Below are positions 3-13,362 of a stretch of DNA of 32,000 bases, one piece after another; the first letter of the stretch is position 1, and every line of letters starts with the position of its first letter. This DNA comes from Desulfosudis oleivorans Hxd3 (GTDB taxonomy: Bacteria > Desulfobacterota > Desulfobacteria > Desulfobacterales > Desulfosudaceae), in contig NC_009943.1 of NCBI RefSeq assembly GCF_000018405.1, positions 240,417 to 272,416 of the forward strand, given 5' to 3'. The position numbers were made by a program, and so were the translations under genes. The notes beneath the pieces are model-generated. The model ran no database searches, was not told where the DNA came from, and worked only from the letters and a program-made list of their open reading frames with translations.

Positions 3-824
3 ATCTCCATTGACGTGGCCAATGACGAGGCCCTGCTGAAAAAGATCCGCCGGTCCGGGGGCACCCATTTTTTCATCGGGCTGGAATCCCTGGACCTTCG
101 CAACCTGAAATATATCGACAAGCATATCGTGGGCGACATCGAAAAGCGGGGCATTACGGCGTCGGACTATTATGCCGAAAGGATTCGAAAGATTCACGCC
201 CAGGGCATTTCGGTGCACGGCTCCTTTATCGTGGGCCTGCCCTATGACTACTTTCATTCGATTTCCGACAACACCGGCATCGACATCGCCCGGTTCTGCA
301 GCAAAAACCGCATCGGCGCCCAGCCCAGCACCATCGTGGACCTGCCCGGCTCGGTGTTTTTCAACGAGAGCCAGGAAAACAACCGGTTCCTGTACGGCCG
401 GCGGGGCACCATGGACTATTTTGTCTCCCTGTCCATCACCGATCTTGCCGAAACCAACAAGATGCCGCCGGACTCGCTGTACAATAGCCCACTGGTGATC
501 GCCGCCATGGTGTATGAAATTGCCAGCCGGGTCGGTTCTCCCATGACAGCGGCGAAAAATTCGGCTATTATTTTTACGCGTTCCTTTTTTCGCCCCACAA
601 AAAACGGCCGCGGGTTCCGGGTGCGGCAGCGGTTTCTCGACGCGCTGTGCTCGGCGGTTTCCCAGACGGCGGTCAGCCTGTACAAGGAGCAGGGCGAGTA
701 CCTGGTACGCTCAGCCCACGGTGTGCGGGGGATCATGGAACGCCTTTACGACGAGGAGAAAAACCCGGAGGTACGACGGATGTTTGCCCGGTATGTAACG
801 CGGTTTACCGAACAACCCGGATAA
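3..824 (+). CDS. Radical SAM enzyme, C-terminal part (5' end lies upstream of the window)
   Basis: The frame is open to the window edge. HFFIGLESLD and ISVHGSFIVGLPYD resemble the conserved G-x-E-S and F-I-V-G-x-P strands of the radical SAM barrel, as in B12-binding radical SAM enzymes. The CxxxCxxC cluster motif is not visible because the N-terminus is missing. Confidence 0.6.
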   Translation: MSIDVANDEALLKKIRRSGGTHFFIGLESLDLRNLKYIDKHIVGDIEKRGITASDYYAERIRKIHAQGISVHGSFIVGLPYDYFHSISDNTGIDIARFCSKNRIGAQPSTIVDLPGSVFFNESQENNRFLYGRRGTMDYFVSLSITDLAETNKMPPDSLYNSPLVIAAMVYEIASRVGSPMTAAKNSAIIFTRSFFRPTKNGRGFRVRQRFLDALCSAVSQTAVSLYKEQGEYLVRSAHGVRGIMERLYDEEKNPEVRRMFARYVTRFTEQPG

Positions 825-1003: not shown

Positions 1004-1299
1004 CCTGAATACCGGTTTTTTCTTCTAATCGTCTGGCAGCCGTGACAAACAAAGCCTGCCGGTAATCCCGCTGTCTTTGTTTTACAGCCGTCCGGGTGAC
1101 GGCGTTGTAAAACGACCTGTTGCCTTCCCACCACAACGTCCCAGCAGCCGGGATCATTCTTGAAAACAGCGGCATGGTTTGATAGGGTATGGACCAGCGG
1201 CACCTGCCGGTCCCTTAAGGGGATTGCAGGGCATGCCGCTTTTTGCGTTACACTGGTTGCTCCGGCGGTTTGCGCTGCCGGGTGCCGACGGAAACGAAG

Positions 1300-4200
1300 A
1301 TGACGCTCAAATCAAAAGCCCTGGAAGTCAACCTGGCCAGCTATCATGTGGATGTCTCCATTGAGGACCGCTACATGGTGCTGCGTGATGTCATGGCCGA
1401 CTTCCAGGGTCTTGCCGAGCGGCTGGACACCTTCTTAAAAGAGCTCTCCCACCCGTACCGGAACTGGCGGTTTATCGTCAGCGAGGCCCGCACCTTTTCC
1501 CTGGACTATTTTTACCAGCTTCGCAACCACGCAAAAGGCCCCCAGGCCGCTGACCTGTATGTCAAGATTTTTGCCGGCGCCATCAGCGCGGCCCAGCAGA
1601 TGCAGGTAAAGGTGGACGCCGCCGACAACCTGCTTTTGTTTCTGCAAAAGGCGGCAAAAGAGGGGGGGGCGGACATGGCGCCGGTGCTTCAGGCGGGCAT
1701 TGACACGATTGCGCGCCTGGAGGGCGAGAGCTTTTCCTTCTTTATCAACAGTTACTACCAGTTGACCGATGTGGCGGCCGCCATGCTCAAAGGCGGGGCC
1801 GCCGACCTGCTGGATGCCGCGCGTCTCGGCCGCCTGCTGGAAAAATACCTGGTGGCGGTGTGCCGCTGCTGGCAGCAGGAAAAAGACAGTCTTGCCTGGC
1901 TGAAAAAAGAGATCGGCTGGACCGCTCCGGCCACCCCTGCCCAGGAGGAGGTGGTGGCCCTGGTTTCCGGGGTGTCCCACAACGCCATCAGCCAGATGCT
2001 TGTGCGCATACGGCAGCTGGAGACCAAAACCCCGGATTCCCGGGAACGGTGCCGGCAACTGGCCCAACTGCCCGGCTACGAGTTTTTTGTGTCCGCCTAC
2101 CGGAACCTGCCCGACGCCCTGTATGCCGCCGGCGTCGACACCGGTAACGGCCACCAGTGGAAACTCCTGGCCCTGTTTCTGGTGTTGAACATGTCAAGCC
2201 TTTCCGGCCTTCACGAAGAGGCATTGCGGGAAATCAACACCACCCTGACCTACCTGATTTCCAGCAGCGATATCAAGAAGAGCCGGGAGTGGATCAAGCG
2301 GACCTTTCAGGTGCTGCAGGATCAGACGGCCCGTTTTCCGGCCACGGCCTTAAACTGCGTGCGCAACGTGGGGGAGAGCGTTTACAAGACCGGGGACGCC
2401 GAGCTGGTGAGCTATTTTATCGACGGCGTGATTGGCCTGGGGTTTCATGCCCCCATGGTGGAGGGGGTGGACAACGACTGGAAGATAAAAGCCAACAAGG
2501 CCCACATTCAGAACATTCGGGCCTGGCTGGCCCTGATCCGGGAAAACCCCCAGCGCTCCTCGCGGCTGTTGTCGGCGCTTATCGTTCATCTCACCCTGGA
2601 GGGGGTATTCATCCGGGACACCGACCTGTTCCCAAGGGATATCACCGAGCTGCTCAACAGTGACATCGGCCCGGTTTATAACATGGTCAAGCAGTTTGCC
2701 CGCCTGCTGCCGGTTTTTTTCAACGACATCGGGGCCGAAGGCGCCCTGCGGGATATCTCCACCGAGCTGGACGAAATCTGCCACCGCAAGGACGTGCTGG
2801 TTCATTTTTTAAGAAAGCAGGGTCACGTGGAGGGCAGCAACCGGCTGATTCCCTTTATGGAGGCGGCTATTGCTTTCTGGCTGACAAAAGACAAGACCGG
2901 TCTAAGGGCTTTTCTGCCGCCGGACATGTATGAACAGGTGCGGGAGAGCGGTCCCTACGTGGACCAGATGCACGCCCTGTTTTCACACCTGGCCGACAGC
3001 GGCGTGGACCTTCCCCGGGGCCTGCTGGCCCTTGACGCTGAAGCGGTGGCCGCGCTGTGCGAAAAGGTGCCCGCCGCGCCGGACCGGGAACGGCGACGGG
3101 TGGTGCTGGTGACCGAGTTCTACAAGCTGCTGGACCAGAAATACACCATCAATCCCTCAGACGTCGAGGGATACGTGGCCCGGCTCAACACCGTCGATTT
3201 TCCGGACTTAAAGGAGCTCAAGCGGGCCTTTGCCGAATCCAAGGCCAAAAACAAGGCAACCCGGCTCATCACCTACCTGGAGCAGCTCAAGGCACTGATC
3301 CTGTCCGACGAACGGTTTGAGATCGAGCAGAACATCTACGAGAAACGCCATATCGCCGTGGACATCCCCTCCATGTACGGCAGCTACCGGGAGACCAAGT
3401 TCGACGCCCTGGGCCTCACCTTCCGGTTGGAGGCCCTGCTCAACGTGCTGTTCGAAGAGATCGTCAACGACATCGACCTGGGCCTGATCACCAAGACCAC
3501 CTTTTTCCAGATTTACAACTGCCTGCGGCTTTTTGTGCGGGCCCTGGCCGTGGACGGCTTTTCCACCAAGGAGATCGAGCTCCAGCTGGACCTCCTGTCC
3601 CAGGGCATCAACACCCGGGGGTTTTCCTTTACCCAGTTTTTGGACATCTTCAAGCGGTTTGCCACCGCGGTCAAGCACATCATCGCCGACCATTTTCACA
3701 ACCGGCACGCAAAGAACCTGCGGACCATCCTGTCCGGCCAGCCCTCCGGCGTGGTGCTGCCCAAGTACCTTCCCGGTGACGGCAGCCGGAGCGCCGACAT
3801 GGACCACGACAAGCTGACCCACCGGGTGTCCGAGATCTTTTTTCGGGAAAAGATCGCCCTCTCCCTGGGGCTTCCTCAGCTGGACCTGCTGCTGACCCGC
3901 GTTCTCAACGTGCTGTTTCACCAGGCCAACACCCTTCCGGCCGAACGGCTGGAGCGGCTGCTCAACTACGACCCGGCCCGCACCATCGCGGCCATCGATG
4001 TCCGGGAAACAAAAAAATACGGCATCATTCACCTGGGCAACAAGGGGTTTAACATCATCAAGCTGTCCGGTTACGGATACCCGGTGCCGCCGGGATTCAT
4101 TATTACCACCGAGGTGTTCCGGTGCCGGGACATCATGGATGCCTATGCCCCGGCCGAGGAGATTTTCCGGCAGCAGATGGCCCATCACCTGAAACACCTG

Positions 4201-5508
4201 GAAAAGTCCGCGGGCCGAAAATTCGGCGACCCGGCAAACCCCCTGCTGCTGGCGGTACGGAGCGGGGCCGCCATCTCCCAGCCGGGCATGATGGACACGG
4301 CCTTAAACGTGGGCATGAACGAGGAGATCACACAGGGGCTGGCGCAACAGACCCGGAACGCATGGTTTGCCTGGGACAGCTACCGCCGGTTTCTGCAATA
4401 CTACGGCATGGCCTTTGGCCTGAAGCGGGACGATTTTGACGCCATCATCCGTGAACACAAGGCCCGGCGGAGCATTCCCCTGAAACGCTATTTTTCCGGG
4501 GACCAGATGCGGCAGGTGGCCCTGGACTATAAAAAAATGCTGGAAGACTGCAAAATAAAGGTTGCGGAGAACCCGTTTGATCAGCTTTACGTAACCGTCA
4601 AAAACGTGTTTGCCTCCTGGTATTCCCAGAAGGCGGAAAACTACCGGAAGATCGTGGGCATCTCCGATGACTGGGGCACGGCGGTAACGGTGCAGTCCAT
4701 GGTGTTCGGCAACCTCTCCCGGCAGTCGGGCAGCGGCGTTTTTTTCACTCACAGCCCCCGCATGCCGGGGGACACGCCCCGGCTGTGGGGCGACTTTACC
4801 ATCGGCAACCAGGGCGAGGACGTGGTGTCCGGCCTGGTCAACACCCTGCCCATTTCCGTGATGCAGAAAGAGGCGGAGCAACGCCGGACCGACATCACCC
4901 TGGAGACCCATTTCCCCGAGATATACGCCGCCCTGAAACAGTGGGTGGATGAGCTGATCTACGAGCACGGCTGGAACCCCCAGGAGATGGAGTTTACGTT
5001 TGAGGGCCCCACGAAAAGCCAGCTTTACTTTCTGCAGACCCGGGACATGACCATTCGGGAGAGCAAAAACATCACGATTTTCGACCCGGACGACGTGCTG
5101 GAGAGCGACCGGTTCCTGGGCCAGGGTATCGGCGTGAGCGGCGGCGCCATGAGCGGGCGTATTGTTTTTTCTTTAGAGGAGATCGACAAGTGGGCCATGG
5201 TGGAGCCCGATACCCATCTGATCCTGATACGGGGCGATACCGTGCCCGACGATATTCGGGAAATATCGGGCACCGACGGCCTGCTGACGGCACGGGGCGG
5301 TCTTTCCTCCCATGCGGCGGTGCTGGCCCACAGCCTGGGCAAGACTTGCGTGGTGGGTTGCGGGGCACTGGTCTGTGACGAGGTGAAAAAGACCTGCCGG
5401 TTCCATGACGTGGTGTTGAACGCCGGAGACTATATCAGCCTTGACGGCGCCGAAGGATCGGTTTATTCAGGATTTTTAAAGACCCGGAAGGTGGAGGCGT
5501 ACCTGTAG
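1300..5508 (+). CDS. Giant PPDK/PEP-synthase-like phosphotransferase. It has an N-terminal region of about 900 aa of unknown function, a PPDK-type ATP-grasp domain and a phosphohistidine swivel domain. No PEP/pyruvate TIM-barrel domain is present.
   Basis: The C-terminal third matches pyruvate phosphate dikinase motifs: GNKGFNIIKLSGYGYPVPPGFIITTEVF, LLAVRSGAAISQPGMMDTALNVG, WGTAVTVQSMVFGN, GDFTIGNQGEDVVSG and LYFLQTRDM. It also carries the mobile-domain motif LLTARGGLSSHAAVLAHSLGKTCVVG, with the His codon at 5311-5313. The start could be 1243 or the MTLKSK ATG at 1300. Confidence 0.8.
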   Translation: MTLKSKALEVNLASYHVDVSIEDRYMVLRDVMADFQGLAERLDTFLKELSHPYRNWRFIVSEARTFSLDYFYQLRNHAKGPQAADLYVKIFAGAISAAQQMQVKVDAADNLLLFLQKAAKEGGADMAPVLQAGIDTIARLEGESFSFFINSYYQLTDVAAAMLKGGAADLLDAARLGRLLEKYLVAVCRCWQQEKDSLAWLKKEIGWTAPATPAQEEVVALVSGVSHNAISQMLVRIRQLETKTPDSRERCRQLAQLPGYEFFVSAYRNLPDALYAAGVDTGNGHQWKLLALFLVLNMSSLSGLHEEALREINTTLTYLISSSDIKKSREWIKRTFQVLQDQTARFPATALNCVRNVGESVYKTGDAELVSYFIDGVIGLGFHAPMVEGVDNDWKIKANKAHIQNIRAWLALIRENPQRSSRLLSALIVHLTLEGVFIRDTDLFPRDITELLNSDIGPVYNMVKQFARLLPVFFNDIGAEGALRDISTELDEICHRKDVLVHFLRKQGHVEGSNRLIPFMEAAIAFWLTKDKTGLRAFLPPDMYEQVRESGPYVDQMHALFSHLADSGVDLPRGLLALDAEAVAALCEKVPAAPDRERRRVVLVTEFYKLLDQKYTINPSDVEGYVARLNTVDFPDLKELKRAFAESKAKNKATRLITYLEQLKALILSDERFEIEQNIYEKRHIAVDIPSMYGSYRETKFDALGLTFRLEALLNVLFEEIVNDIDLGLITKTTFFQIYNCLRLFVRALAVDGFSTKEIELQLDLLSQGINTRGFSFTQFLDIFKRFATAVKHIIADHFHNRHAKNLRTILSGQPSGVVLPKYLPGDGSRSADMDHDKLTHRVSEIFFREKIALSLGLPQLDLLLTRVLNVLFHQANTLPAERLERLLNYDPARTIAAIDVRETKKYGIIHLGNKGFNIIKLSGYGYPVPPGFIITTEVFRCRDIMDAYAPAEEIFRQQMAHHLKHLEKSAGRKFGDPANPLLLAVRSGAAISQPGMMDTALNVGMNEEITQGLAQQTRNAWFAWDSYRRFLQYYGMAFGLKRDDFDAIIREHKARRSIPLKRYFSGDQMRQVALDYKKMLEDCKIKVAENPFDQLYVTVKNVFASWYSQKAENYRKIVGISDDWGTAVTVQSMVFGNLSRQSGSGVFFTHSPRMPGDTPRLWGDFTIGNQGEDVVSGLVNTLPISVMQKEAEQRRTDITLETHFPEIYAALKQWVDELIYEHGWNPQEMEFTFEGPTKSQLYFLQTRDMTIRESKNITIFDPDDVLESDRFLGQGIGVSGGAMSGRIVFSLEEIDKWAMVEPDTHLILIRGDTVPDDIREISGTDGLLTARGGLSSHAAVLAHSLGKTCVVGCGALVCDEVKKTCRFHDVVLNAGDYISLDGAEGSVYSGFLKTRKVEAYL

Positions 5509-5588
5509 CCCGAATATTTCATGAAATATCCGGGTTAGAGGTTTAAACCAGGGCCGTGCGGGGGCCATTGAACAAAGGAGTACGAACC

Positions 5589-6842
5589 ATGAAAAAGCAA
5601 GACGCCGTGAAGATCGGCATTAACGGTCTGGGCAGAATCGGCAAACTGACGCTGTGGCATCATGTGGGCCGCAAGTATTTTCAGGAGATTGTCGTCAATA
5701 TCGGTCGATCGGCGGGATCTTCCATGAATGACATCGCCCATTATATCGAACGGGATTCCACTTACGGTCACCTGCACAGTTACCTTCACGGCTGCAGCTC
5801 GACACCGGTCATTGAAGAGGTGGACGAAGTGGCCGGCACCATGGTCATCGACGGTGTCAACGTGCGTTTTCTCCGCAAGGAGCGGAACCCCGCCGACATC
5901 GGGTGGCGAAACTTCGGCGTCAAGCTGGTGGTGGACACCACGGGGTCATTCCTGGATCCCACCGTGCCCGCCGACGCCCCCAAAGGCGCGCTGCGCGGTC
6001 ATCTCGTCTCCGGCGCGGAGAAGGTGGTGCTGTCGGCCCCCTTCAAGATCAAGGACAAGCAGGCCGCCATGCCCGACGATGCGGTGACCACGGTGATGGG
6101 CATCAATGAAAACGATTATGATCCCCGGCGGCACGTTCTGGTTTCCAACGCCTCCTGCACCACCACCTGCCTGGCCCACATGATCAAACCGTTGCTCAAC
6201 CACTTCGGGCCGCGAAAGATCCTGTCCGCCTCCATGGCAACGATTCACGCGGCCACGGCCAGCCAGGAGGTGCTGGACCGGCTGCCCAAGGCGGGAAAGA
6301 CCGACCTGCGAAAGAACCGGAGCGTGCTCAACAATATTATTCTGACCACCACGGGCGCGGCCAACGCGTTGCGCCTGGTGATTCCGGAGATGCGGCAGAT
6401 CGGCTTTATTGCCGAGTCGGTGCGGGTGCCCGTGACCTCCGGATCCCTGATTATCCTGGTGGTCAATCTTCAGGAGGAGCTTTCCGGCGATCCCATCCGG
6501 CGGGAGCGCATCAACAACATCTACCGTCAGGCCGCGGCGGGCAGCCCGAATGGATACCTGCTTTATACGGACAAGCAGAACGTGTCCGCCGACATCATCG
6601 GCGCGCCCAGGGCCGCGGCCGTGATCGAGGGTAGTGAAACCCATACGCGCACCGCCGAGGTGGCCATAGACCTGCACAATGTGCCCGGCCTGGACGACCG
6701 CATTCTGTCCGCCGTGGAAAACGCCACCATTCGGGTGCCGGTGACCCAGACCGTGATTTTCGGGTGGTACGACAATGAGATGGCCAGCTATGTGAATATT
6801 CTGGGAGACCGGTGCGTGTCGGTGGCTGAAATACTTAATTGA
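5589..6842 (+). CDS. Glyceraldehyde-3-phosphate dehydrogenase family protein, long form (417 aa)
   Basis: AAAGGAG RBS lies 8 nt upstream of the ATG at 5589. It has the NAD-binding motif KIGINGLGRIGKL, the catalytic Cys motif SNASCTTTCLAHM and ATIHAATASQ. It is about 80 aa longer than classical Gap because of internal insertions. Confidence 0.85.
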   Translation: MKKQDAVKIGINGLGRIGKLTLWHHVGRKYFQEIVVNIGRSAGSSMNDIAHYIERDSTYGHLHSYLHGCSSTPVIEEVDEVAGTMVIDGVNVRFLRKERNPADIGWRNFGVKLVVDTTGSFLDPTVPADAPKGALRGHLVSGAEKVVLSAPFKIKDKQAAMPDDAVTTVMGINENDYDPRRHVLVSNASCTTTCLAHMIKPLLNHFGPRKILSASMATIHAATASQEVLDRLPKAGKTDLRKNRSVLNNIILTTTGAANALRLVIPEMRQIGFIAESVRVPVTSGSLIILVVNLQEELSGDPIRRERINNIYRQAAAGSPNGYLLYTDKQNVSADIIGAPRAAAVIEGSETHTRTAEVAIDLHNVPGLDDRILSAVENATIRVPVTQTVIFGWYDNEMASYVNILGDRCVSVAEILN

Positions 6843-6934
6843 CAAGCAGTCCGGTTATCGAATGGGTGAGAGTGCCCGGAAATTCAAGGCATATTTTGAC
6901 AGAAGCACAGTTTTGTGCAGCGAAGCAGTGTTGT

Positions 6935-7330
6935 ATGATTGACAAGAAGATTCTGGTGATTGATGACGAGGGCGCGCAGCGGGACGTGATGGAGCGGTTT
7001 ATTCCCAAGCTCGGCTACGCGGTTCGCGTGGCCGACTCGGCCGAGACCGCCCTTGCAGTGCTGAAGGAAGAAGCCTTCCCCCTGGTGATTACCGACCTGA
7101 ACATGCCCGGCATGGACGGCCTGGAGCTGTGCCGCCGCATCAAGCAGCTGGATGCCGGCATCATCATTTATGCTCTGTCTGGTTATATCGCCTCCTTTGA
7201 CGAGGCAAAACTGGATGCCTGCGGGTTTGACGGCTATTTGAGCAAGCCGGCCAACGCCAGGGTGCTGCACCAGGCGATTGAGGGGGCGTTTGAAAAGATT
7301 TTTCGCCGGGCACGGGAGGAGCAGGAATAG
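6935..7330 (+). CDS. Single-domain response regulator (CheY-like receiver, no output domain)
   Basis: KILVIDDE, the phospho-acceptor context LVITDLNMPGMDG and a conserved Lys in GYLSKP. The start was chosen at MIDKKIL rather than the longer ORF-track start at 6839. Confidence 0.85.
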   Translation: MIDKKILVIDDEGAQRDVMERFIPKLGYAVRVADSAETALAVLKEEAFPLVITDLNMPGMDGLELCRRIKQLDAGIIIYALSGYIASFDEAKLDACGFDGYLSKPANARVLHQAIEGAFEKIFRRAREEQE

Positions 7331-7345
7331 CAGGGGGGTGTAGTT

Positions 7346-7392
7346 AAAAAGCCGGATGCGAGCGCTAGCGCCCGCATCCGGCTTTTCGTGTT
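7346..7392. terminator. Bidirectional rho-independent terminator between convergent genes
   Basis: A 10-bp perfect stem, GCCGGATGCG (7351-7360) pairing with CGCATCCGGC (7373-7382). It is flanked by AAAAA upstream and a T-run downstream, between the receiver gene stop and the thiolase gene stop. Confidence 0.7.
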
Positions 7393-7428
7393 TTTAAGCC
7401 GGTTCAAAAGAACCGTTTTTTTTATCTG

Positions 7429-8604
7429 TTAGACCTTTTCCACCAGCAGTGCCCCGCCGTTGCCGAAGGCGCCGCACAGGGAGGCAAGGCCGTATTTTGC
7501 ATCCGGCGCATCTGTCTTTAAGACATTGAGGAGGGTGACAATGATGCGGGCGCCCGACTCTCCCAGGGGATGGCCAAGGGCGATGGCGCCGCCCCACATG
7601 TTGACCTTGTCAAAGGGCGCATTGTCTTTGTCCAGCTTGAGTTCCCGAATGCAGGCCAGTGCCTGGCTGGCAAAGGCCTCGTTAAGCTCGACGGCGCCGA
7701 TGTCCTGGGGGCCAAGGCCGGTGCGGGCGAACAGCTTCTGTACCGCCGGTACCGGGGCCATGCCCATGATGGTGGGGTCGCAGCCGCCCAGCACGCCGTA
7801 GCTGTACTTGTATGTGTAGGAAAGGCCCAGCGCGTCGGCCTTTTTGCGGCTCATCATCAGCATGCAGCAGGCGCCCTGGGTCAGGGGGGAGGAGGTGGCG
7901 GCGGTCACGTTGCCGTCCGGCTTGAACGGGGACTTCATGCTTGCCATTTTTGCCGGGTCCACCTTGTCGCGGATCCACTGGTCGTGCTCTACCAGGAACT
8001 CGTTACCCGCGTCGTCCAGGCCCTTGATCGGAACGATTTCGTTTTTGAACTTGCCGGCATCCCGGGCAGCAGCGGCTTTCTTGTTGGACCAGATGGCCAT
8101 GTTGTCCATGTCTTCCCTGGAGATCTTGTACATCTCGGCCACCTTTTCAGCGGTGGAGCCCATGGGGAAGTCGGCCAGATTGTAACGGCTGAAGAGCCGG
8201 GGCGGAAAGTCCATGTTGGCGGCCATGGGAACCTTTTCCATGTCTTCTGCACCGGCGGCGATCATGATGTCGGCCTCGCCGGTAATGATGGCCCGGGCCG
8301 CGTGCATGGTGGCGGCCATGCCGGACGGGCACTGGTTGGTGATGGTGTTGCTGGGAACACTCTCCGGATAACCGCCGGCCAGCCAGCCCAGCCGGCCGAT
8401 ATCGTTCTGCATGCCGGTAATATTGGCGCAGCCCACCATGATGGCGTCGATATCTTCGGGTTTGACGGCCTTGTTTCTTTCAAACAGGGCGTCGTAAGTG
8501 GCGGTGAGCAGCTCATCGGGACGCAGCTTCCGAAACCAGCCTTTTTCCGCATGGGCCCTGCCGTTGGGGGTTCTTACGCCGTCGATAAATACACATTCTT
8601 CCAT
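7429..8604 (-). CDS. Thiolase (acetyl-CoA C-acyltransferase family)
   Basis: Nucleophile Cys motif NQCPSGMAATMHAA, then GGAIALGHPLGESGAR and the C-terminal SLCGAFGNGGALLVEKV. AAGGAGA lies 8 nt upstream of the MEECVF ATG at 8604, so the longer ORF-track start at 8622 is probably wrong. Confidence 0.9.
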   Translation of the reverse strand: MEECVFIDGVRTPNGRAHAEKGWFRKLRPDELLTATYDALFERNKAVKPEDIDAIMVGCANITGMQNDIGRLGWLAGGYPESVPSNTITNQCPSGMAATMHAARAIITGEADIMIAAGAEDMEKVPMAANMDFPPRLFSRYNLADFPMGSTAEKVAEMYKISREDMDNMAIWSNKKAAAARDAGKFKNEIVPIKGLDDAGNEFLVEHDQWIRDKVDPAKMASMKSPFKPDGNVTAATSSPLTQGACCMLMMSRKKADALGLSYTYKYSYGVLGGCDPTIMGMAPVPAVQKLFARTGLGPQDIGAVELNEAFASQALACIRELKLDKDNAPFDKVNMWGGAIALGHPLGESGARIIVTLLNVLKTDAPDAKYGLASLCGAFGNGGALLVEKV

Positions 8605-8629
8605 AACAAAACTCTCCTTCATGTTTGAA

Positions 8630-10492
8630 TTAATTGTTTAAACTGCCTGAAAACTCCTGTTCCGCCAACTTGCGGATCTCTTTTTTATTCAGCTTCTGCA
8701 CCTCGGTGAGGGGCATGGCATCCACTATTTTTACGGCCTTGGGAACCGCATACTTGGGCACCCGTTCCCGAAGAAAGGAGATGATCTCCTCGGGGGTCAG
8801 CTTTTCCTTATACGCATCGGTGGGCTGCACATAGGCCACCACCCGTTCGCTGCCCTCCCGTTCAGGGTCCGGAATACCCACGGTGGCGCCCATCTCCACG
8901 CCGGGGTGACCGGCGAGAATGTCGTCGATTTCCCGTGTATACACCTTGTAGCCGGAGACGTTGACCATGTCCTTGGTGCGGTCGACAATATAAAAGTAAC
9001 CGTCCTTGTCCACTGTTACAACGTCGCCGGTGTGAATATAACCGTCTGCATCCATTCCGCTGCCCGGATCCGGCCAGTAGCCCAGCATGCGCTGGGGGCC
9101 TTTCAGGCACATCTCACCGCGCTTGCCGGCAATAATGTCCTCGGGGGTAAGGATTGCGCCGGTATCCACGTCAACCAGCAGGATTTCCGTGTCCGGAAAC
9201 GGAATACCGGACGTACCACGTTTTTCAATGGATGGTTTTTTCTTTTCTTTTGTTTTTCCGGTGCGGTTGACGGTAAAGGAGACAAACCCACCAAAGGCCT
9301 TGCCTACGGCCTTGGGGCCGATCAGCCGCATGCCCCGGTTCAACAGAAACGCGGACCCCGGCAGGCCGAGGGCCGTGCTGTTGAGGCGCTGGGGAATACG
9401 TCCGCCGGCCAGCCGCAACAGAAAAGAGGTGTTCAGGTGCGTGCACGGCGACATCTCGGACAATCCGTATCCCTCCATGATGGCGCCGCTTGACTGCTTT
9501 TCAAACTTTTCCTGGGTACTCGGCGGAAGCGGCGCGGATCCGGAAACCCCGAGCATGCCCATCCCCTGGAGCTCTTCCTGGGCGATCTTGAGGAACTGGG
9601 TCGGAACCCCCATCTGCATGAGGGGCCGGTATTCCTTGATCATTTCCACCATGACCTTGGAGTCACGGGCGTCGGTGATCAGTATCTGGTTGACGCCCAG
9701 CATGGTCATGACATGCATGATCATGTGGCCGTAAGAATGAAAAAGGGGCAAGCCGAGTAGAACGGAAATTGCCCCTTTTAATATTTTGTGCGCCGCTCCC
9801 TGGGCCCAGCAGGACTGCATGCTGTTGGCGTAGATGTTGCGATGGGTCAGCATGCATCCCTTGGGCAGCCCGGTGGTGCCGCCGGTAAACAGCAGCAGCT
9901 CCAGGTCCTTTTCAACATCAAAGTCTACCCGGGGCGGATTGGGCGGTGTGTTGGCGATCAGGTCGGCCATCCATACGGCGTTGGGAATATCCAGGGCCTT
10001 ATGGGTGGCCGGCGGGTTTAAAGAGTAGTCATCCAGGCTCGACACAATCAGGTGTTCTATTCCGGTACTTTTCATCACCTCCACGGCAATGTCCAGATAC
10101 TCGTCCAGGCAGATGAGCGCCCTGGGCGAGCCCTTGGAGAATTTGTGTTCGAGCGTACTGGGCGGCTCAAGCGAGCTGCTGGGAATCTGGACGAGTCCTG
10201 CCTTGGCAATGGCGTAATCCGCGATCACAAACTGAATGCTTGTGGGAAGGATGGTCGCCACCCGTTCTCCCTTTTTCAGCCCCATGGCCGCCAGGGCCGT
10301 GGCCAGCCGGTCCGCGTGGTCCTTTGCTTCAGGATAGGTCATCTTGAAGTTGTTCTGGATGAGCCCCGTTTTCTTGAACCGGGCGGCGGTGTCGTCCAGA
10401 ATGTCACCCACGGACTTGTTCGGATACGGCTCCAGGGATTGCGGAATACCAAAAACCTTGTACTCTTTAAACCACGGCATCTGTGCGCTCAA
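8630..10492 (-). CDS. AMP-forming acyl-CoA synthetase (fatty-acid-CoA ligase family)
   Basis: AMP-binding motifs LLFTGGTTGLPKGCMLTHRN, GYGLSEMSP and TGDVVTVDKDGYFYIVDRTKDMVNVSGYKVY. The start is TTG at 10492 with GGAGG 7 nt upstream. It ends 25 nt before the thiolase start. Confidence 0.9.
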   Translation of the reverse strand: MSAQMPWFKEYKVFGIPQSLEPYPNKSVGDILDDTAARFKKTGLIQNNFKMTYPEAKDHADRLATALAAMGLKKGERVATILPTSIQFVIADYAIAKAGLVQIPSSSLEPPSTLEHKFSKGSPRALICLDEYLDIAVEVMKSTGIEHLIVSSLDDYSLNPPATHKALDIPNAVWMADLIANTPPNPPRVDFDVEKDLELLLFTGGTTGLPKGCMLTHRNIYANSMQSCWAQGAAHKILKGAISVLLGLPLFHSYGHMIMHVMTMLGVNQILITDARDSKVMVEMIKEYRPLMQMGVPTQFLKIAQEELQGMGMLGVSGSAPLPPSTQEKFEKQSSGAIMEGYGLSEMSPCTHLNTSFLLRLAGGRIPQRLNSTALGLPGSAFLLNRGMRLIGPKAVGKAFGGFVSFTVNRTGKTKEKKKPSIEKRGTSGIPFPDTEILLVDVDTGAILTPEDIIAGKRGEMCLKGPQRMLGYWPDPGSGMDADGYIHTGDVVTVDKDGYFYIVDRTKDMVNVSGYKVYTREIDDILAGHPGVEMGATVGIPDPEREGSERVVAYVQPTDAYKEKLTPEEIISFLRERVPKYAVPKAVKIVDAMPLTEVQKLNKKEIRKLAEQEFSGSLNN

Positions 10493-10615
10493 CGATATAC
10501 CTCCCTCTGGCGTTTGTGGGTTTGAAACATCTTTTCGTGCCTTTCGGCCGCTGATACCAGAATTTTTGTCGTACCACTATATGGGATATAAATTGTACCG
10601 TCTACTCTTTTTTGC

Positions 10616-11176
10616 TTAGGTAAACAGGGGCTGTGTCTGCATGGCAAAGGCCATGTCCCCTTCGATCTGCATGCCGCCGGACATGAACAGGTTTACCGGG
10701 TTGGTCTCCTTTTTTACCAGGGCGATGGAGTCCGCTGTTTTCATCTTGAAGGTTGCGGCCGGGGTGTCAGCACCGTTGAAAACGGTTTTGATCGATACGG
10801 CGCTGCCGTCGTCATTGGCCAGCTGGGCCATGAAGCTGCCTTTAAGGGTCTGAAGCGTGTTGTACTTACGCTTGTTCAGGTCGCTCTGAATGCCCAGCAG
10901 CATGTCCAGGCTGTTGGTTTCGATCATTTTCTGAAGGTCTTCAGCGGTAATGCTGATTCGGACCAGGGGGTTGTCCAGGTCGCCTTCCTTGACGTCAAAC
11001 TCGGTGCCGTCTTTCACCACGTAGGCAAATTTGTCCCCGGAAACCTCGACCACCATGGTGAACTCAGTGCCGGCCAGTTCAGTGGCGGCGCCGCTTTCAG
11101 CGATCGTTTTTTTTGCCAGGTTGGGGGAAAAGTCCAGAAGAAGTTCTTTTACGCTGATTCCTGCAGGTATATCCAT
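10616..11176 (-). CDS. SCP2 (sterol carrier protein 2)-like lipid-binding domain protein
   Basis: The C-terminal NPVNLFMSGGMQIEGDMAFAMQ matches the SCP2-family F-M-x-G-K-L-K-I-x-G-(N/D)-M motif. AAGGAGA RBS lies 8 nt upstream of the ATG. Confidence 0.7.
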   Translation of the reverse strand: MDIPAGISVKELLLDFSPNLAKKTIAESGAATELAGTEFTMVVEVSGDKFAYVVKDGTEFDVKEGDLDNPLVRISITAEDLQKMIETNSLDMLLGIQSDLNKRKYNTLQTLKGSFMAQLANDDGSAVSIKTVFNGADTPAATFKMKTADSIALVKKETNPVNLFMSGGMQIEGDMAFAMQTQPLFT

Positions 11177-11402
11177 AATATTATCTCCTTGCTGCCAGGC
11201 ACTCTGTCCTGACGGCTAAACAACCATTAATATTCATCCCATGTGTTTTCTGTCAACAAAAATCTGGTTCAAACCCGCCACACCAGAAGTGAAGGTGGGC
11301 TTTTTCAGAATGTGGTTTTTTCGATAGGACCTCCTTTCGTTTCGGGTTACCGGCAGCCGGTCAAAAAAGGCCGGTTGACAATGTTTTCAGTTTGGAGTAA
11401 AG

Positions 11403-11420
11403 AAACTGACATGTCAGTTT
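11403..11420. promoter_or_regulatory. Perfect 18-bp palindrome, candidate TetR operator
   Basis: AAACTGACATGTCAGTTT is its own reverse complement. It lies in the divergent region between the SCP2 cluster and the TetR gene. An extra half-site, TCAGTTT, is at 11387-11393 and a TTGACA hexamer is at 11375-11380. Confidence 0.5.
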
Positions 11421-11538
11421 TATTATTAACCACCATGCATGTCAAGAACAAAAAGCGTGTGTTGCTTTTTTATAAGAAGGGCGTAGCATAGAAAGCCGGT
11501 CAGCGGCGGCGCTGTTGACCGCATTTGAGAGGACAACC

Positions 11539-12156
11539 ATGAAAGCGGAAAAACGAAAAGACCTGATCCTGGCATGTTCGAAAAAACTGTTTGCAAAACA
11601 GGGGTTTTACAGGACACAAATTTCAGACATCATAGATGAAGCCAGGATTGCCAGGGGGACGATATACCAGTATTTTAAAAACAAAGAAGATATTTTTGTT
11701 TCCCTGCTGGAAGGCGCCTATGCCCAGTGGGAGCAGGCCGTTTCCCAGGCCGTGGCCGCCATTGACCTGAAAACCATCAAACCGGTGGATTACTTTCGGC
11801 TGCGCATACAAACAACACTGGAGTTTTTATTAGCTGATCCGGATATTTGCAGCATTGTCCTCTCCATGGGATTCGGTCTTCCCGAAGACCTGGAAAAAGC
11901 AACCCGCAAGCTTGAAAGCAAAATACGGGATATTGCGGTAAACGACTTCATGCTGGGCATTCACAACAATCATGTTCGAAAAAACATCAACATCGATCAT
12001 GCCGCCGAGATGATTGCCGGGGCCGCGTTCCGGTCGGCCTATTATATGCAGAAAAAGGCCAAAACCGGTGACCGGGCCGACATCGACACCATGACCGACG
12101 AAATCGTCAACCTGCTGGCGCCCGGCATCTTTCTTCCTGAATCCCTGAAACTGTGA
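11539..12156 (+). CDS. TetR/AcrR family transcriptional regulator
   Basis: N-terminal HTH signature ISDIIDEARIARGTIYQYFKNKEDIF. GAGAGGA lies upstream of the ATG at 11539. It is divergent from the acyl-CoA cluster. Confidence 0.85.
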   Translation: MKAEKRKDLILACSKKLFAKQGFYRTQISDIIDEARIARGTIYQYFKNKEDIFVSLLEGAYAQWEQAVSQAVAAIDLKTIKPVDYFRLRIQTTLEFLLADPDICSIVLSMGFGLPEDLEKATRKLESKIRDIAVNDFMLGIHNNHVRKNINIDHAAEMIAGAAFRSAYYMQKKAKTGDRADIDTMTDEIVNLLAPGIFLPESLKL

Positions 12157-12207
12157 GGCCGGTTGTTTGACAGCATAACATCTTTTGTTGCGCACACCCC
12201 CACTGCC

Positions 12208-13362
12208 TCACTCATCCAGCGAGCCCCGCTTGACCATGGTCTTGCCGAACTTTTCCGATATGGCCGACACCGACCGGTCCACCTGCTCCCACCGGGAGTC
12301 GCGGCGCGCCTCCCCGTCAAATAACTCCATCTGCACGCCCCCGGAGGTCACCACCAGTTCGGTAACGCCCACGCCGATCAACCGGACCTTCTGGGCAAGG
12401 GTCTGTTTTTCCAGGAGGGCGGACGCCTGCCGGTAAATGGTGTCCGAGGACTGGACCGGAGCGTCCAGGGTGGTTTGCCGGGTGGTTTGGGAAAAGTCGG
12501 CATATTTTATCTTGATAAACACCACCCGGGCCCGGGCGTTCAGCTTCTGAAGATGGCGGCATACGTCTCCGGCCTGGCGCAGCAGATGGTGCCGCAGTTC
12601 CTGTTTTTCCGCCGTGTCCCGGGAAAGGGTGGTCTCCTCGCTCACCGATTTTGCCGGATGCCACGGCACCACCCGGGAATCGTCGATTCCCCGGGAGAGT
12701 TCTTTTAATCGCCGGCCGAATTTTCCCAGCTTTTTGGAAAGCACTCCGTCTGGCAGCCGGACCACGTCGCCCAGGGTTTCAATGCCCATCAGGGCCAGCT
12801 GTTTTTTTGTGACCGACCCCACCCCCGGCACCTTGTGAACGGGCAGGGTTTCGATAAACCGGTCCGCCGCTTCGGGCAAAATCACCATCAGGCCGTCGGG
12901 CTTGTTCATGTCCGAGGCGATCTTGGCCAGGAACTTGATCGGCGCCACGCCCACCGAGCAGGTGATGCCGAGCGTGTCAAAGACCTGCTTCTTGATATTT
13001 TTTCCAATGGTTTCCGGGGTGCCGTGCAGCCGTTCGCATCCCGAGATGTCGAGGTAGGCCTCGTCAATGGAGACCTGCTCCACCAGGGGAGAGACCGCGT
13101 CCAGGATCTCCATGACCCGGGCAGACACCTCCTTGTAGCGTTCCATGCGCGGGGGCGCCACAATCGCGTCAGGACAGAGCTTTAAGGCCCGGGACATGGG
13201 CATGGCCGAGTGCACGCCAAAGACCCGGGCCTCGTAGCTGGCCGCTGCCACCACCCCCCGGCCCGAGCTTCTGCCAACCACCACGGCACGGCCTCGCCAC
13301 TCGGGGTGGTCCAGCTGCTCTACCGACGCGAAAAACGCGTCCATGTCAACATGAAGAATCAT
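12208..13362 (-). CDS. dinB: DNA polymerase IV (Y-family translesion polymerase)
   Basis: MILHVDMDAFFASVEQ carries the catalytic Asp pair. SIDEAYLD, ASDMNKPDG and the length (384 aa) are typical of DinB. Confidence 0.92.
   Translation of the reverse strand: MILHVDMDAFFASVEQLDHPEWRGRAVVVGRSSGRGVVAAASYEARVFGVHSAMPMSRALKLCPDAIVAPPRMERYKEVSARVMEILDAVSPLVEQVSIDEAYLDISGCERLHGTPETIGKNIKKQVFDTLGITCSVGVAPIKFLAKIASDMNKPDGLMVILPEAADRFIETLPVHKVPGVGSVTKKQLALMGIETLGDVVRLPDGVLSKKLGKFGRRLKELSRGIDDSRVVPWHPAKSVSEETTLSRDTAEKQELRHHLLRQAGDVCRHLQKLNARARVVFIKIKYADFSQTTRQTTLDAPVQSSDTIYRQASALLEKQTLAQKVRLIGVGVTELVVTSGGVQMELFDGEARRDSRWEQVDRSVSAISEKFGKTMVKRGSLDE

Follow-up and report, generated by a model that had tools for sequence, protein, structure and literature searches.

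Pyruvate phosphate dikinase (PPDK, EC 2.7.9.1; C. symbiosum structures 1KBL and 1DIK) joins an ATP-grasp domain and a swiveling phospho-histidine domain to a phosphoenolpyruvate (PEP)/pyruvate TIM barrel. Rifampicin phosphotransferase (RPH; Listeria structures 5HV1 and 5FBS; profile NF041857) lacks the barrel and combines the ATP-grasp and swivel histidine domains with a different acceptor domain. In Enzyme I of the phosphotransferase system (PTS) and in EI-Ntr (PtsP), which has a sensor (GAF) domain and a regulatory role, a swivel phospho-histidine of the same superfamily donates phosphate to HPr or NPr. Here we analyze a 32,000-nucleotide stretch of the Desulfosudis oleivorans Hxd3 chromosome (NC_009943.1, positions 240,417 to 272,416, forward strand; hereafter the window, with all coordinates counted from its first nucleotide) that encodes a 1402-residue barrel-less PPDK-like protein, for which we use the working name BIG (1300–5508, +, stop codon included). 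Its partner gene encodes a 417-residue member of the glyceraldehyde-3-phosphate dehydrogenase (GAPDH) family that we call long GAPDH (5589–6842, +).

Like PPDK, with which it shares ~31–33% identity, BIG places an ATP-grasp domain ahead of a swivel phospho-histidine domain; unlike PPDK, it has no PEP/pyruvate barrel and instead carries a 905-residue all-α N-terminal domain (N-domain) before the core, and its score against the PPDK profile TIGR01828 is under half of the cut-off. RPH shares the general barrel-less design but is built in the order ATP-grasp, substrate domain and histidine domain, whereas BIG runs from substrate domain to ATP-grasp to histidine domain; the two are 16% identical and match in Foldseek over the shared core only (TMq 0.15–0.16), and BIG reaches 38.5 bits against the NF041857 cut-off of 999. 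PTS Enzyme I, unlike BIG, is charged by PEP through its barrel and has no ATP-grasp domain, and BIG scores 14.4 bits against the Enzyme I profile TIGR01417 (cut-off 341.7), in the histidine domain only; its phosphate donation to a protein serves below as an analogy for the reading that we favor. Succinyl-CoA synthetase provides a mechanistic analogy only, proceeding from an ATP-grasp domain to a mobile histidine, to an acyl phosphate on a carboxylate and then to thiol attack, which is the chemistry that a version of BIG acting on 3-phosphoglycerate (3-PG) and the GAPDH cysteine would need; its acceptor domain is non-homologous to BIG and its nucleotide product is a diphosphate, not AMP. Long GAPDH in turn resembles the gluconeogenic GapB-type GAPDH of B. 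subtilis in lacking Asp32 and in having the catalytic residues of phosphorylating GAPDHs, while GapB-type enzymes lack the ~80 extra residues and five conserved inserts of long GAPDH. Database annotations name BIG homologs PEP synthase or PPDK, and we found no published description of the BIG family in the literature searched.

BIG retains a PPDK-type catalytic core

An uninterrupted open reading frame (ORF) spans 1243–5508 (+), and we place the BIG start at ATG 1300 rather than at 1243 because homologs start at the same residues. The resulting gene is supported by its translation, by Pfam, NCBIfam and PDB matches and by homologs of the same length. Pfam assigns BIG residues 912–1195 to PPDK_N (PF01326, 105.6 bits) and residues 1307–1386 to the PEP-utilizers mobile domain (PF00391, 58.1 bits), and returns no match in BIG to the PEP-utilizers_C barrel (PF02896). 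Against TIGR01828, BIG covers N-terminal profile positions only, with 392.9 bits compared to a cut-off of 843.45. Residues 912–1398 align to residues 18–514 of the 873 residues of C. symbiosum PPDK (1kbl), and the chain ends right after the histidine domain, opposite PPDK residue ~514, where the PEP/pyruvate barrel would start. The core thus divides into an ATP-grasp domain at residues ~906–1255 (4015–5064, +), defined by PF01326, by alignment to 1kbl 18–337 and by a Foldseek match to 1kbl, and a swivel phospho-histidine domain at residues ~1270–1402 (5107–5505, +), defined by PF00391 and by alignment to 1kbl 381–514 and to 2fm4.

Residue equivalents between PPDK and BIG include K22 and K915, R92 and R987, E323 and E1231, Q335 and Q1246, R337 and R1248, and H455 and H1338. 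Every catalytic residue tested in the ATP-grasp/swivel core is conserved and family-invariant, and the core is invariant also in members outside the phylum Thermodesulfobacteriota. The catalytic His1338 (codon 5311–5313, +) lies in the motif GGLSSHAAV, which fits the PPDK pattern of a swivel histidine in GGxTSHAA, and is invariant in the family and in a distant paralog described below. An AlphaFold2 model of BIG 203–1402, the second of two that we computed (predicted local distance difference test (pLDDT) 86.7, predicted TM-score (pTM) 0.72), superposes through its C-terminal half on PPDK 1kbl/1dik with a root-mean-square deviation of 3.4 Å over ~540 columns in Foldseek, and the PPDK conformer that it matches has the histidine domain at the ATP site. 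Since ~540 of 872 PPDK residues align to the BIG model, the model has no barrel. HisKA and HATPase_c domains were not detected in BIG at E ≤ 1 in Pfam. Together, these sequence and model comparisons identify the BIG core as an intact PPDK-type ATP-grasp and phospho-histidine machinery. A first-pass annotation of the window had read the residues from about 935 onward as the nucleotide-binding and swivel-histidine domains of PPDK, ending after the histidine domain, had called the PEP/pyruvate barrel absent and had placed the catalytic histidine codon at 5311–5313; the 1kbl alignment, the missing PF02896 match and the end of the chain bear out each of these points.

The N-terminal domain is all-α and carries invariant polar residues

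Neither the single sequence of BIG residues 1–905 (1300–4014, +) nor a profile of 24 sequences matched anything in Pfam, NCBIfam or the PDB sequences, in agreement with the first-pass statement that some 900 N-terminal residues hold no recognized motif. AlphaFold2 modeling of this region from a 61-sequence alignment (pLDDT 88.3, pTM 0.83) predicts an all-α domain of 47 helices and one β-hairpin that belongs to no known family or fold. Foldseek comparison of the N-domain to the PDB returned just generic α-solenoids at TM ≤ 0.17, with no barrel and no similarity to the rifampicin-binding domain, and alignment of the N-domain profile to the barrel of the source genome's own PPDK with hhalign gave a probability of 0.4%. 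The all-α model, the Foldseek search and the hhalign result exclude a hidden or diverged PEP/pyruvate barrel, an outcome that the first-pass annotation had named as refuting its description. A repeat solenoid scaffold was also rejected, since self-alignment of the N-domain with hhalign revealed no internal repeat and the solenoid matches in Foldseek are as low as given above.

When 33 family members are aligned together with 15 paralogs, 45 N-domain residues show at least 97% invariance within the main family, and 17 of these are common to the distant paralog family. Polar invariants shared with the paralog include H402, D440, D442, R484, E492, R496, R505, H509, K614 and Y615, with D440-T441-D442 forming an invariant DxD (codons 2617–2625, +), and invariants specific to the main family include K682-R683-H684, E480, D491, K506 and E511. 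The sole N-domain segments with pLDDT below 50 are two invariant loops, DIGA (476–479) and RHIAVD (683–688), the latter in both AlphaFold2 models. DIGA is part of the invariant, predicted flexible NDIGAEG loop (D476–A479 codons, 2725–2736, +), in which I477 and G478 are at least 97% invariant, and RHIAVD runs on from the K682-R683-H684 tip of the sole β-hairpin (codons 3343–3351, +), which is family-invariant, changed in the paralog and likewise predicted to be flexible. Invariant loops with low pLDDT are typical of loops that become ordered on ligand or partner binding, and such loops are often ligand-binding or catalytic.

BIG and long GAPDH are inherited and lost together

The long GAPDH gene follows BIG in the window behind a ribosome-binding site AAGGAG (5576–5581) and is identified by Pfam Gp_dh_N and Gp_dh_C matches, by TIGR01534 and by its co-occurrence with BIG. 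We surveyed 101 loci from two collections, 80 of them with enough DNA downstream, and observed long GAPDH directly downstream of BIG in 73 of these 80; it is the only universally conserved BIG neighbor in the gene neighborhoods examined. The pairing holds genome-wide. Within a sample of 301 Thermodesulfobacteriota genomes from 201 genera, the N-domain is matched in 86 genomes (60 genera), strongly in 80, and long GAPDH is present in 80 of the 80 strong BIG carriers, including three in which the genes lie megabases apart (G016, G206 and G278) and seven in which they lie on different contigs (G095, G128, G190, G250, G058, G160 and G220). Two genomes with BIG remnants only (G140 and G083) have no long GAPDH, and in one genome without BIG (G112) long GAPDH has an internal stop. 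Long GAPDH without BIG was observed in six genomes, four of which are just 61–79% complete. The carrier genomes are related rather than independent, and these figures are counts, not a statistical test. BIG and long GAPDH are inherited and lost together.

Long GAPDH scores 326.5 bits against TIGR01534, under the cut-off of 367.2 because of its five inserts. It keeps Cys149, His176, Thr179, Arg195, Thr208/Gly209, Arg231 and WYDNE, with the catalytic and phosphate-site motifs SNASCTTTCLA, TIHAAT, DLRKNRS, TTGAA and RVPV, and it lacks Asp32, having NxGR where NAD-specific enzymes have N-D32. The best PDB match is 8wwz, 'GAPDH 2'. The five inserts are conserved and family-specific, leave the protein ~80 residues longer than the B. 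subtilis GapB-type enzyme, and include an ETHTRT motif and a segment of ~20–25 residues before WYDNE. Because its own chemistry is standard, the special trait of long GAPDH is most simply its relation to BIG.

The pair sits beside an intact GAPDH–PGK node

Phosphoglycerate kinase (PGK) is encoded in 293 of the 301 genomes and in all 80 BIG carriers. Long GAPDH adjoins pgk in six genera (G170, G278, G106 (twice), G220, G190 and G139), with BIG, long GAPDH and pgk in series in G170 and G106, and it is the sole GAPDH in G030 and G069, both complete genomes of 1.8 Mb. On the strength of this adjacency and sole occurrence, together with its conserved residues, long GAPDH reads as a genuine glyceraldehyde 3-phosphate/1,3-bisphosphoglycerate (1,3-BPG) enzyme that works with PGK. 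Most BIG carriers have two to three GAPDH genes, and a role of long GAPDH as the general housekeeping enzyme, which holds in G030 and G069 only, was rejected. A canonical 334-residue gap gene with Asp32 often stands directly upstream of the BIG–long GAPDH pair, and in Desulfobacterales acsB-cdhD-acsE-DUF3786 is found upstream, with the pair directly downstream of the carbon monoxide dehydrogenase/acetyl-CoA synthase (CODH/ACS) genes.

Two of these genomes provide further observations. The 2.0-Mb single-contig genome G106 contains the long GAPDH–PGK pair twice with identical match scores (G106:C1:505494-507924 and 1777503-1779933), indicating recent duplication. In G069, the BIG homolog (G069:C1:682947-685587) seems to be broken into two or more ORFs (652 and 809 residues) and the adjacent long GAPDH match contains a TAA; no other GAPDH was detected in this genome, and both genes may be undergoing joint pseudogenization.

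The source genome, a single 3.94-Mb contig that is 99.99% complete, encodes PGK, canonical GAPDH, long GAPDH and a third paralog, as well as a separate canonical PPDK of 916 residues. The third GAPDH-family gene (G000:C1:2669040-2670014, −), which lies outside the window, has a 377-residue frame and scores 348.8 bits, under the TIGR01534 cut-off.

Several roles of BIG in replacing a known enzyme or in salvage were considered and rejected. Replacement of PGK is contradicted by the retention of PGK in every carrier and by the frequent presence of pgk in the same cluster. Salvage of AMP and pyrophosphate (PPi) to ADP and inorganic phosphate (Pi) through BIG and PGK would cost ~+11 kJ/mol (an estimate from standard values) and would need no GAPDH. 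The barrel family PEP-utilizers_C is found in 297 of the 301 genomes, and the four without it (G016, G095, G190 and G250) form one Desulfogranum-like genus, are all BIG carriers and are at least 99% complete. In this genus BIG is the sole superfamily member, with no PPDK, PEP synthase or PTS Enzyme I, and a GTP-dependent PEP carboxykinase (GTP-PEPCK) is present. A replacement of PPDK or PEP synthase was dismissed, as nearly all carriers keep a barrel enzyme and the barrel-less genus has GTP-PEPCK.

BIG homologs extend across phyla and include domain fusions

Searching with the N-domain retrieved 1119 proteins, nearly all 1360–1450 residues long with the same two C-terminal Pfam domains, as well as 554 clusters at 50% identity, the shorter members of which resemble contig fragments. 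Labels of carriers within the phylum include Desulfobacterales, Desulfobulbaceae, Thermodesulfobacterium, Caldimicrobium, Thermodesulfatator and Thermosulfurimonas, and labels beyond it include Thermoleophilia/Miltoncostaeaceae (Actinomycetota), Dehalococcoidia, Dissulfurispiraceae (Nitrospirota) and metagenome-assembled genomes of Myxococcota. A Miltoncostaeaceae member (P0396) keeps all 38 N-domain and core marker residues that we checked.

One distant but otherwise intact subfamily carries an N-terminal hemerythrin domain (PF01814) fused to BIG; it is metagenomic, with one partial member labeled Myxococcota, and examples include P0167, P0157, L148–L151, L156, L159 and L166. Long GAPDH lies directly downstream in all 22 hemerythrin-subfamily loci that reach far enough. 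The subfamily keeps the catalytic histidine apart from one species-level cluster (P0167 and P0486–P0489), so that a general loss of this residue across the subfamily was rejected. In that cluster, all five full-length members examined have tyrosine in place of the catalytic histidine (GGATSYAA) and glycine in place of the arginine equivalent to PPDK R92, within a still full-length 1540-residue ORF that retains most N-domain invariants. This pattern reflects either early decay or a role of the N-domain that is independent of phospho-histidine.

A distant paralog of ~1490 residues, represented by 87 proteins from Desulfomonilaceae only, shares the architecture of BIG as well as its histidine and ATP-grasp residues and is 28% identical to it over 1064 residues. 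It has no long GAPDH, and in three of four contexts the gene immediately downstream of the paralog encodes a GAF-sigma54 activator. At locus L138, for example, the paralog (6810–11438, +) and the GAF-sigma54 enhancer-binding protein (11434–13176, +) overlap at stop and start, an arrangement found also at L139 and L147.

A CheY-like receiver joins the operon in the window's clade

Downstream of long GAPDH, the window encodes a stand-alone CheY-like receiver of 131 residues (6935–7330, +; PF00072; start ATG 6935) with intact acceptor residues, and a terminator-like hairpin with a T-run (7400–7425, +) closes the three-gene unit. We detected no histidine kinase near this operon. In the window's own clade (L054, L055 and L142–L145), BIG is 62–69% identical and the receiver, 64–80% identical, occupies the same position; the gene order there is radical SAM, 55-residue ORF, BIG, long GAPDH and receiver. 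The receiver was not found at the corresponding position in any other locus examined, and we excluded it as a family-wide partner of BIG. The neighborhood highlighted by the first-pass annotation has therefore held in part: its GAPDH-like gene is the conserved partner (73/80 loci, 80/80 genomes), while its receiver gene is conserved in the window's clade only.

Upstream of BIG stand the radical SAM gene (~600 residues; window 3–824, +) and the ORF for a highly charged 55-residue protein (836–1003, +), both found at 72–82% identity and in the same order only in the window's clade (L142–L145 and L054). Beyond them the flanks differ, so that a unit of five genes peculiar to this clade is possible. 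Another receiver next to a long-type GAPDH, the second such case, occurs at locus L140 of genome G279, where the long GAPDH gene (6210–7496, +) is convergent with a gene for a PAS-domain response regulator (7496–8530, −).

BIG as a candidate phosphoryl donor to its partner GAPDH

The comparisons above suggest a mechanism in which the ATP-grasp domain would charge His1338 on the swivel domain, with the likely chemistry E + ATP + Pi <-> E-His~P + AMP + PPi. Conversion of Pi to PPi during charging is probable because PPDK is a much closer relative of the BIG core than PEP synthase is. The swivel would then deliver the phosphoryl group to the all-α N-domain, where candidate acceptor-site residues are D440xD442, R484, R496, R505, H509, K614 and the flexible K682-R683-H684 loop. 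BIG and the downstream long, NADP-type GAPDH would constitute an obligate functional unit and probably a physical complex, and phosphate may be accepted either by the partner GAPDH itself or by chemistry taking place in the active site of that enzyme. BIG could in this way act as a phosphoryl-donating switch or activator whose charge state reports ATP + Pi versus AMP + PPi and which determines how active its dedicated GAPDH is, or in which direction it runs, in an enzyme otherwise working with ordinary PGK; in the window's clade, the CheY-like receiver might be an additional read-out of phospho-histidine or acyl phosphate. From these genomic and structural comparisons we infer that charging yields PPi, where the acceptor site lies, that BIG and long GAPDH form a complex and what the acceptor is.

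BIG and long GAPDH very probably work as one unit. What passes between them is a more tentative matter, and our leading reading, which we hold with caution, is that BIG might pass phosphate to, or at, its partner GAPDH. We prefer it since it best accommodates the dedicated inserts, the retention and co-clustering of PGK, the hemerythrin fusions and the regulator-linked paralog, and transfer from PTS Enzyme I to HPr provides a precedent for a swivel phospho-histidine that phosphorylates a protein. A more specific form, in which BIG would act as a new metabolic switch that phosphorylates its own GAPDH or builds the acyl-enzyme from 3-PG without free 1,3-BPG, is possible but doubtful. Several observations weigh against phosphate transfer to the GAPDH. 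We identified no phospho-acceptor residue on GAPDH, with ETHTRT a candidate only; the polar invariant set of DxD, Arg, His and Lys residues in the N-domain looks like a small-molecule phosphotransfer site; and to our knowledge the acceptors of barrel-less superfamily relatives are small molecules or a polymer, namely rifampicin, phenol, glucan and prodigiosin precursors. The putative physical complex of BIG and GAPDH is suggested by genomics alone, and in one complete genome, G279, but in no other, an intact long GAPDH occurs without BIG.

In two further readings BIG acts on a free metabolite. In one, BIG would be a dikinase for another small molecule of triose-phosphate metabolism, neither 3-PG nor pyruvate, with GAPDH as a pathway neighbor. 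Swapped substrate domains have superfamily precedent in RPH, phenylphosphate synthase, glucan water dikinase and PigC; BIG has weak model matches to RPH, PigC and RedH; and the polar invariant constellation with its flexible invariant loops, which the paralog keeps in part and alters in the rest as for a changed specificity, would suit such a substrate. We nevertheless regard this as unlikely, as the gene neighborhoods yield no candidate substrate, GAPDH being the only universal neighbor, and BIG and GAPDH co-occur and are lost together more strictly than mere pathway neighbors usually do. The first-pass suggestion of a phosphotransferase similar to RPH accordingly stands as far as a PPDK-derived ATP-grasp/swivel-histidine enzyme is concerned, while RPH-like action on a free small substrate is not established, given the different domain order and the RPH scores. 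In the other reading, BIG would be a 3-phosphoglycerate dikinase (3-PG + ATP + Pi -> 1,3-BPG + AMP + PPi) that hands its product to the long NADPH-type GAPDH for reduction; this AMP-forming gluconeogenic route would be pulled thermodynamically, would bypass PGK and would resemble succinyl-CoA synthetase in its logic. The strict pairing with a phosphorylating GAPDH that lacks Asp32, like NADP(H)-using GapB-type enzymes, and that best matches 8wwz fits this proposal, as do the CODH/ACS-downstream position in Desulfobacterales and the canonical-gap context, both of which suit gluconeogenesis; the basic and acidic invariants of the N-domain fit an anionic substrate, and the reaction would be near equilibrium (~+4 kJ/mol, estimated from standard free energies). 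Against it, PGK is kept in 80 of 80 carriers and pgk adjoins long GAPDH in six genera and stands in series with BIG in G170 and G106, where co-expression would create a futile cycle; a free product would need no dedicated GAPDH with special inserts, and the hemerythrin fusions and regulator neighbors would be unexpected, so that we consider a 3-PG dikinase quite unlikely.

The remaining readings fare worse. BIG is labeled PEP synthase or PPDK in source annotations and is the sole superfamily member in four Desulfogranum-like genomes, as would suit an alternative pyruvate dikinase (PEP synthase) with a new pyruvate/PEP site in the helical N-domain, but a canonical PPDK or PEP synthase is retained in the source genome and in nearly all carriers, the barrel-less genus has GTP-PEPCK for PEP formation, the N-domain is unrelated to the barrel, and such a role would leave unexplained why BIG is bound so strictly to one type of GAPDH; this reading is very improbable. 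An equally poor prospect is that BIG is mainly a signaling kinase whose phospho-histidine feeds the CheY-like receiver in an unorthodox two-component system. The clade-conserved receiver (64–80%) with intact acceptor residues, the lack of a nearby histidine kinase and the coupling of the paralog to a sigma-54 activator are in its favor, whereas the receiver is missing from this position in other sampled lineages in which BIG and long GAPDH are conserved together, and BIG has neither HisKA nor HATPase_c. That the ORF is an artefact, whether a frameshift or assembly fusion near 4.0 kb, a concern raised at first pass, or a decaying PPDK paralog, is hardly conceivable. No observation spoke in its favor, and the genome is a single, nearly complete contig, the same architecture and length recur in more than 1000 proteins from several phyla, invariant residues lie on both sides of the junction and AlphaFold2 is confident across it.

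Implications

BIG is encoded by more than a quarter of the Thermodesulfobacteriota genomes sampled and by some Actinomycetota, Nitrospirota and Myxococcota, and the names "PEP synthase" and "PPDK" given to its homologs lead astray the reconstruction of metabolism in sulfate reducers, sulfur disproportionators and acetogen-like autotrophs. No structural relative of the ~900-residue N-domain has been solved, and the identity of its acceptor would contribute either a novel reaction or a novel mode of regulation to central carbon metabolism; thermophilic members from Thermodesulfobacterium and Thermodesulfatator make the question directly amenable to in vitro work. If BIG does act as a switch, it would provide energy-state-gated control or a bypass at the GAPDH–PGK node in anaerobes, with lineage-specific plug-ins in the form of hemerythrin (O2/redox), the CheY-like receiver and, for the paralog, a sigma-54 activator. 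GAPDH–PGK is among the best-studied metabolic nodes, and the pairing of BIG with long GAPDH suggests that the central sugar metabolism of anaerobic bacteria includes a step of phosphate transfer, or a control, that has yet to be described.

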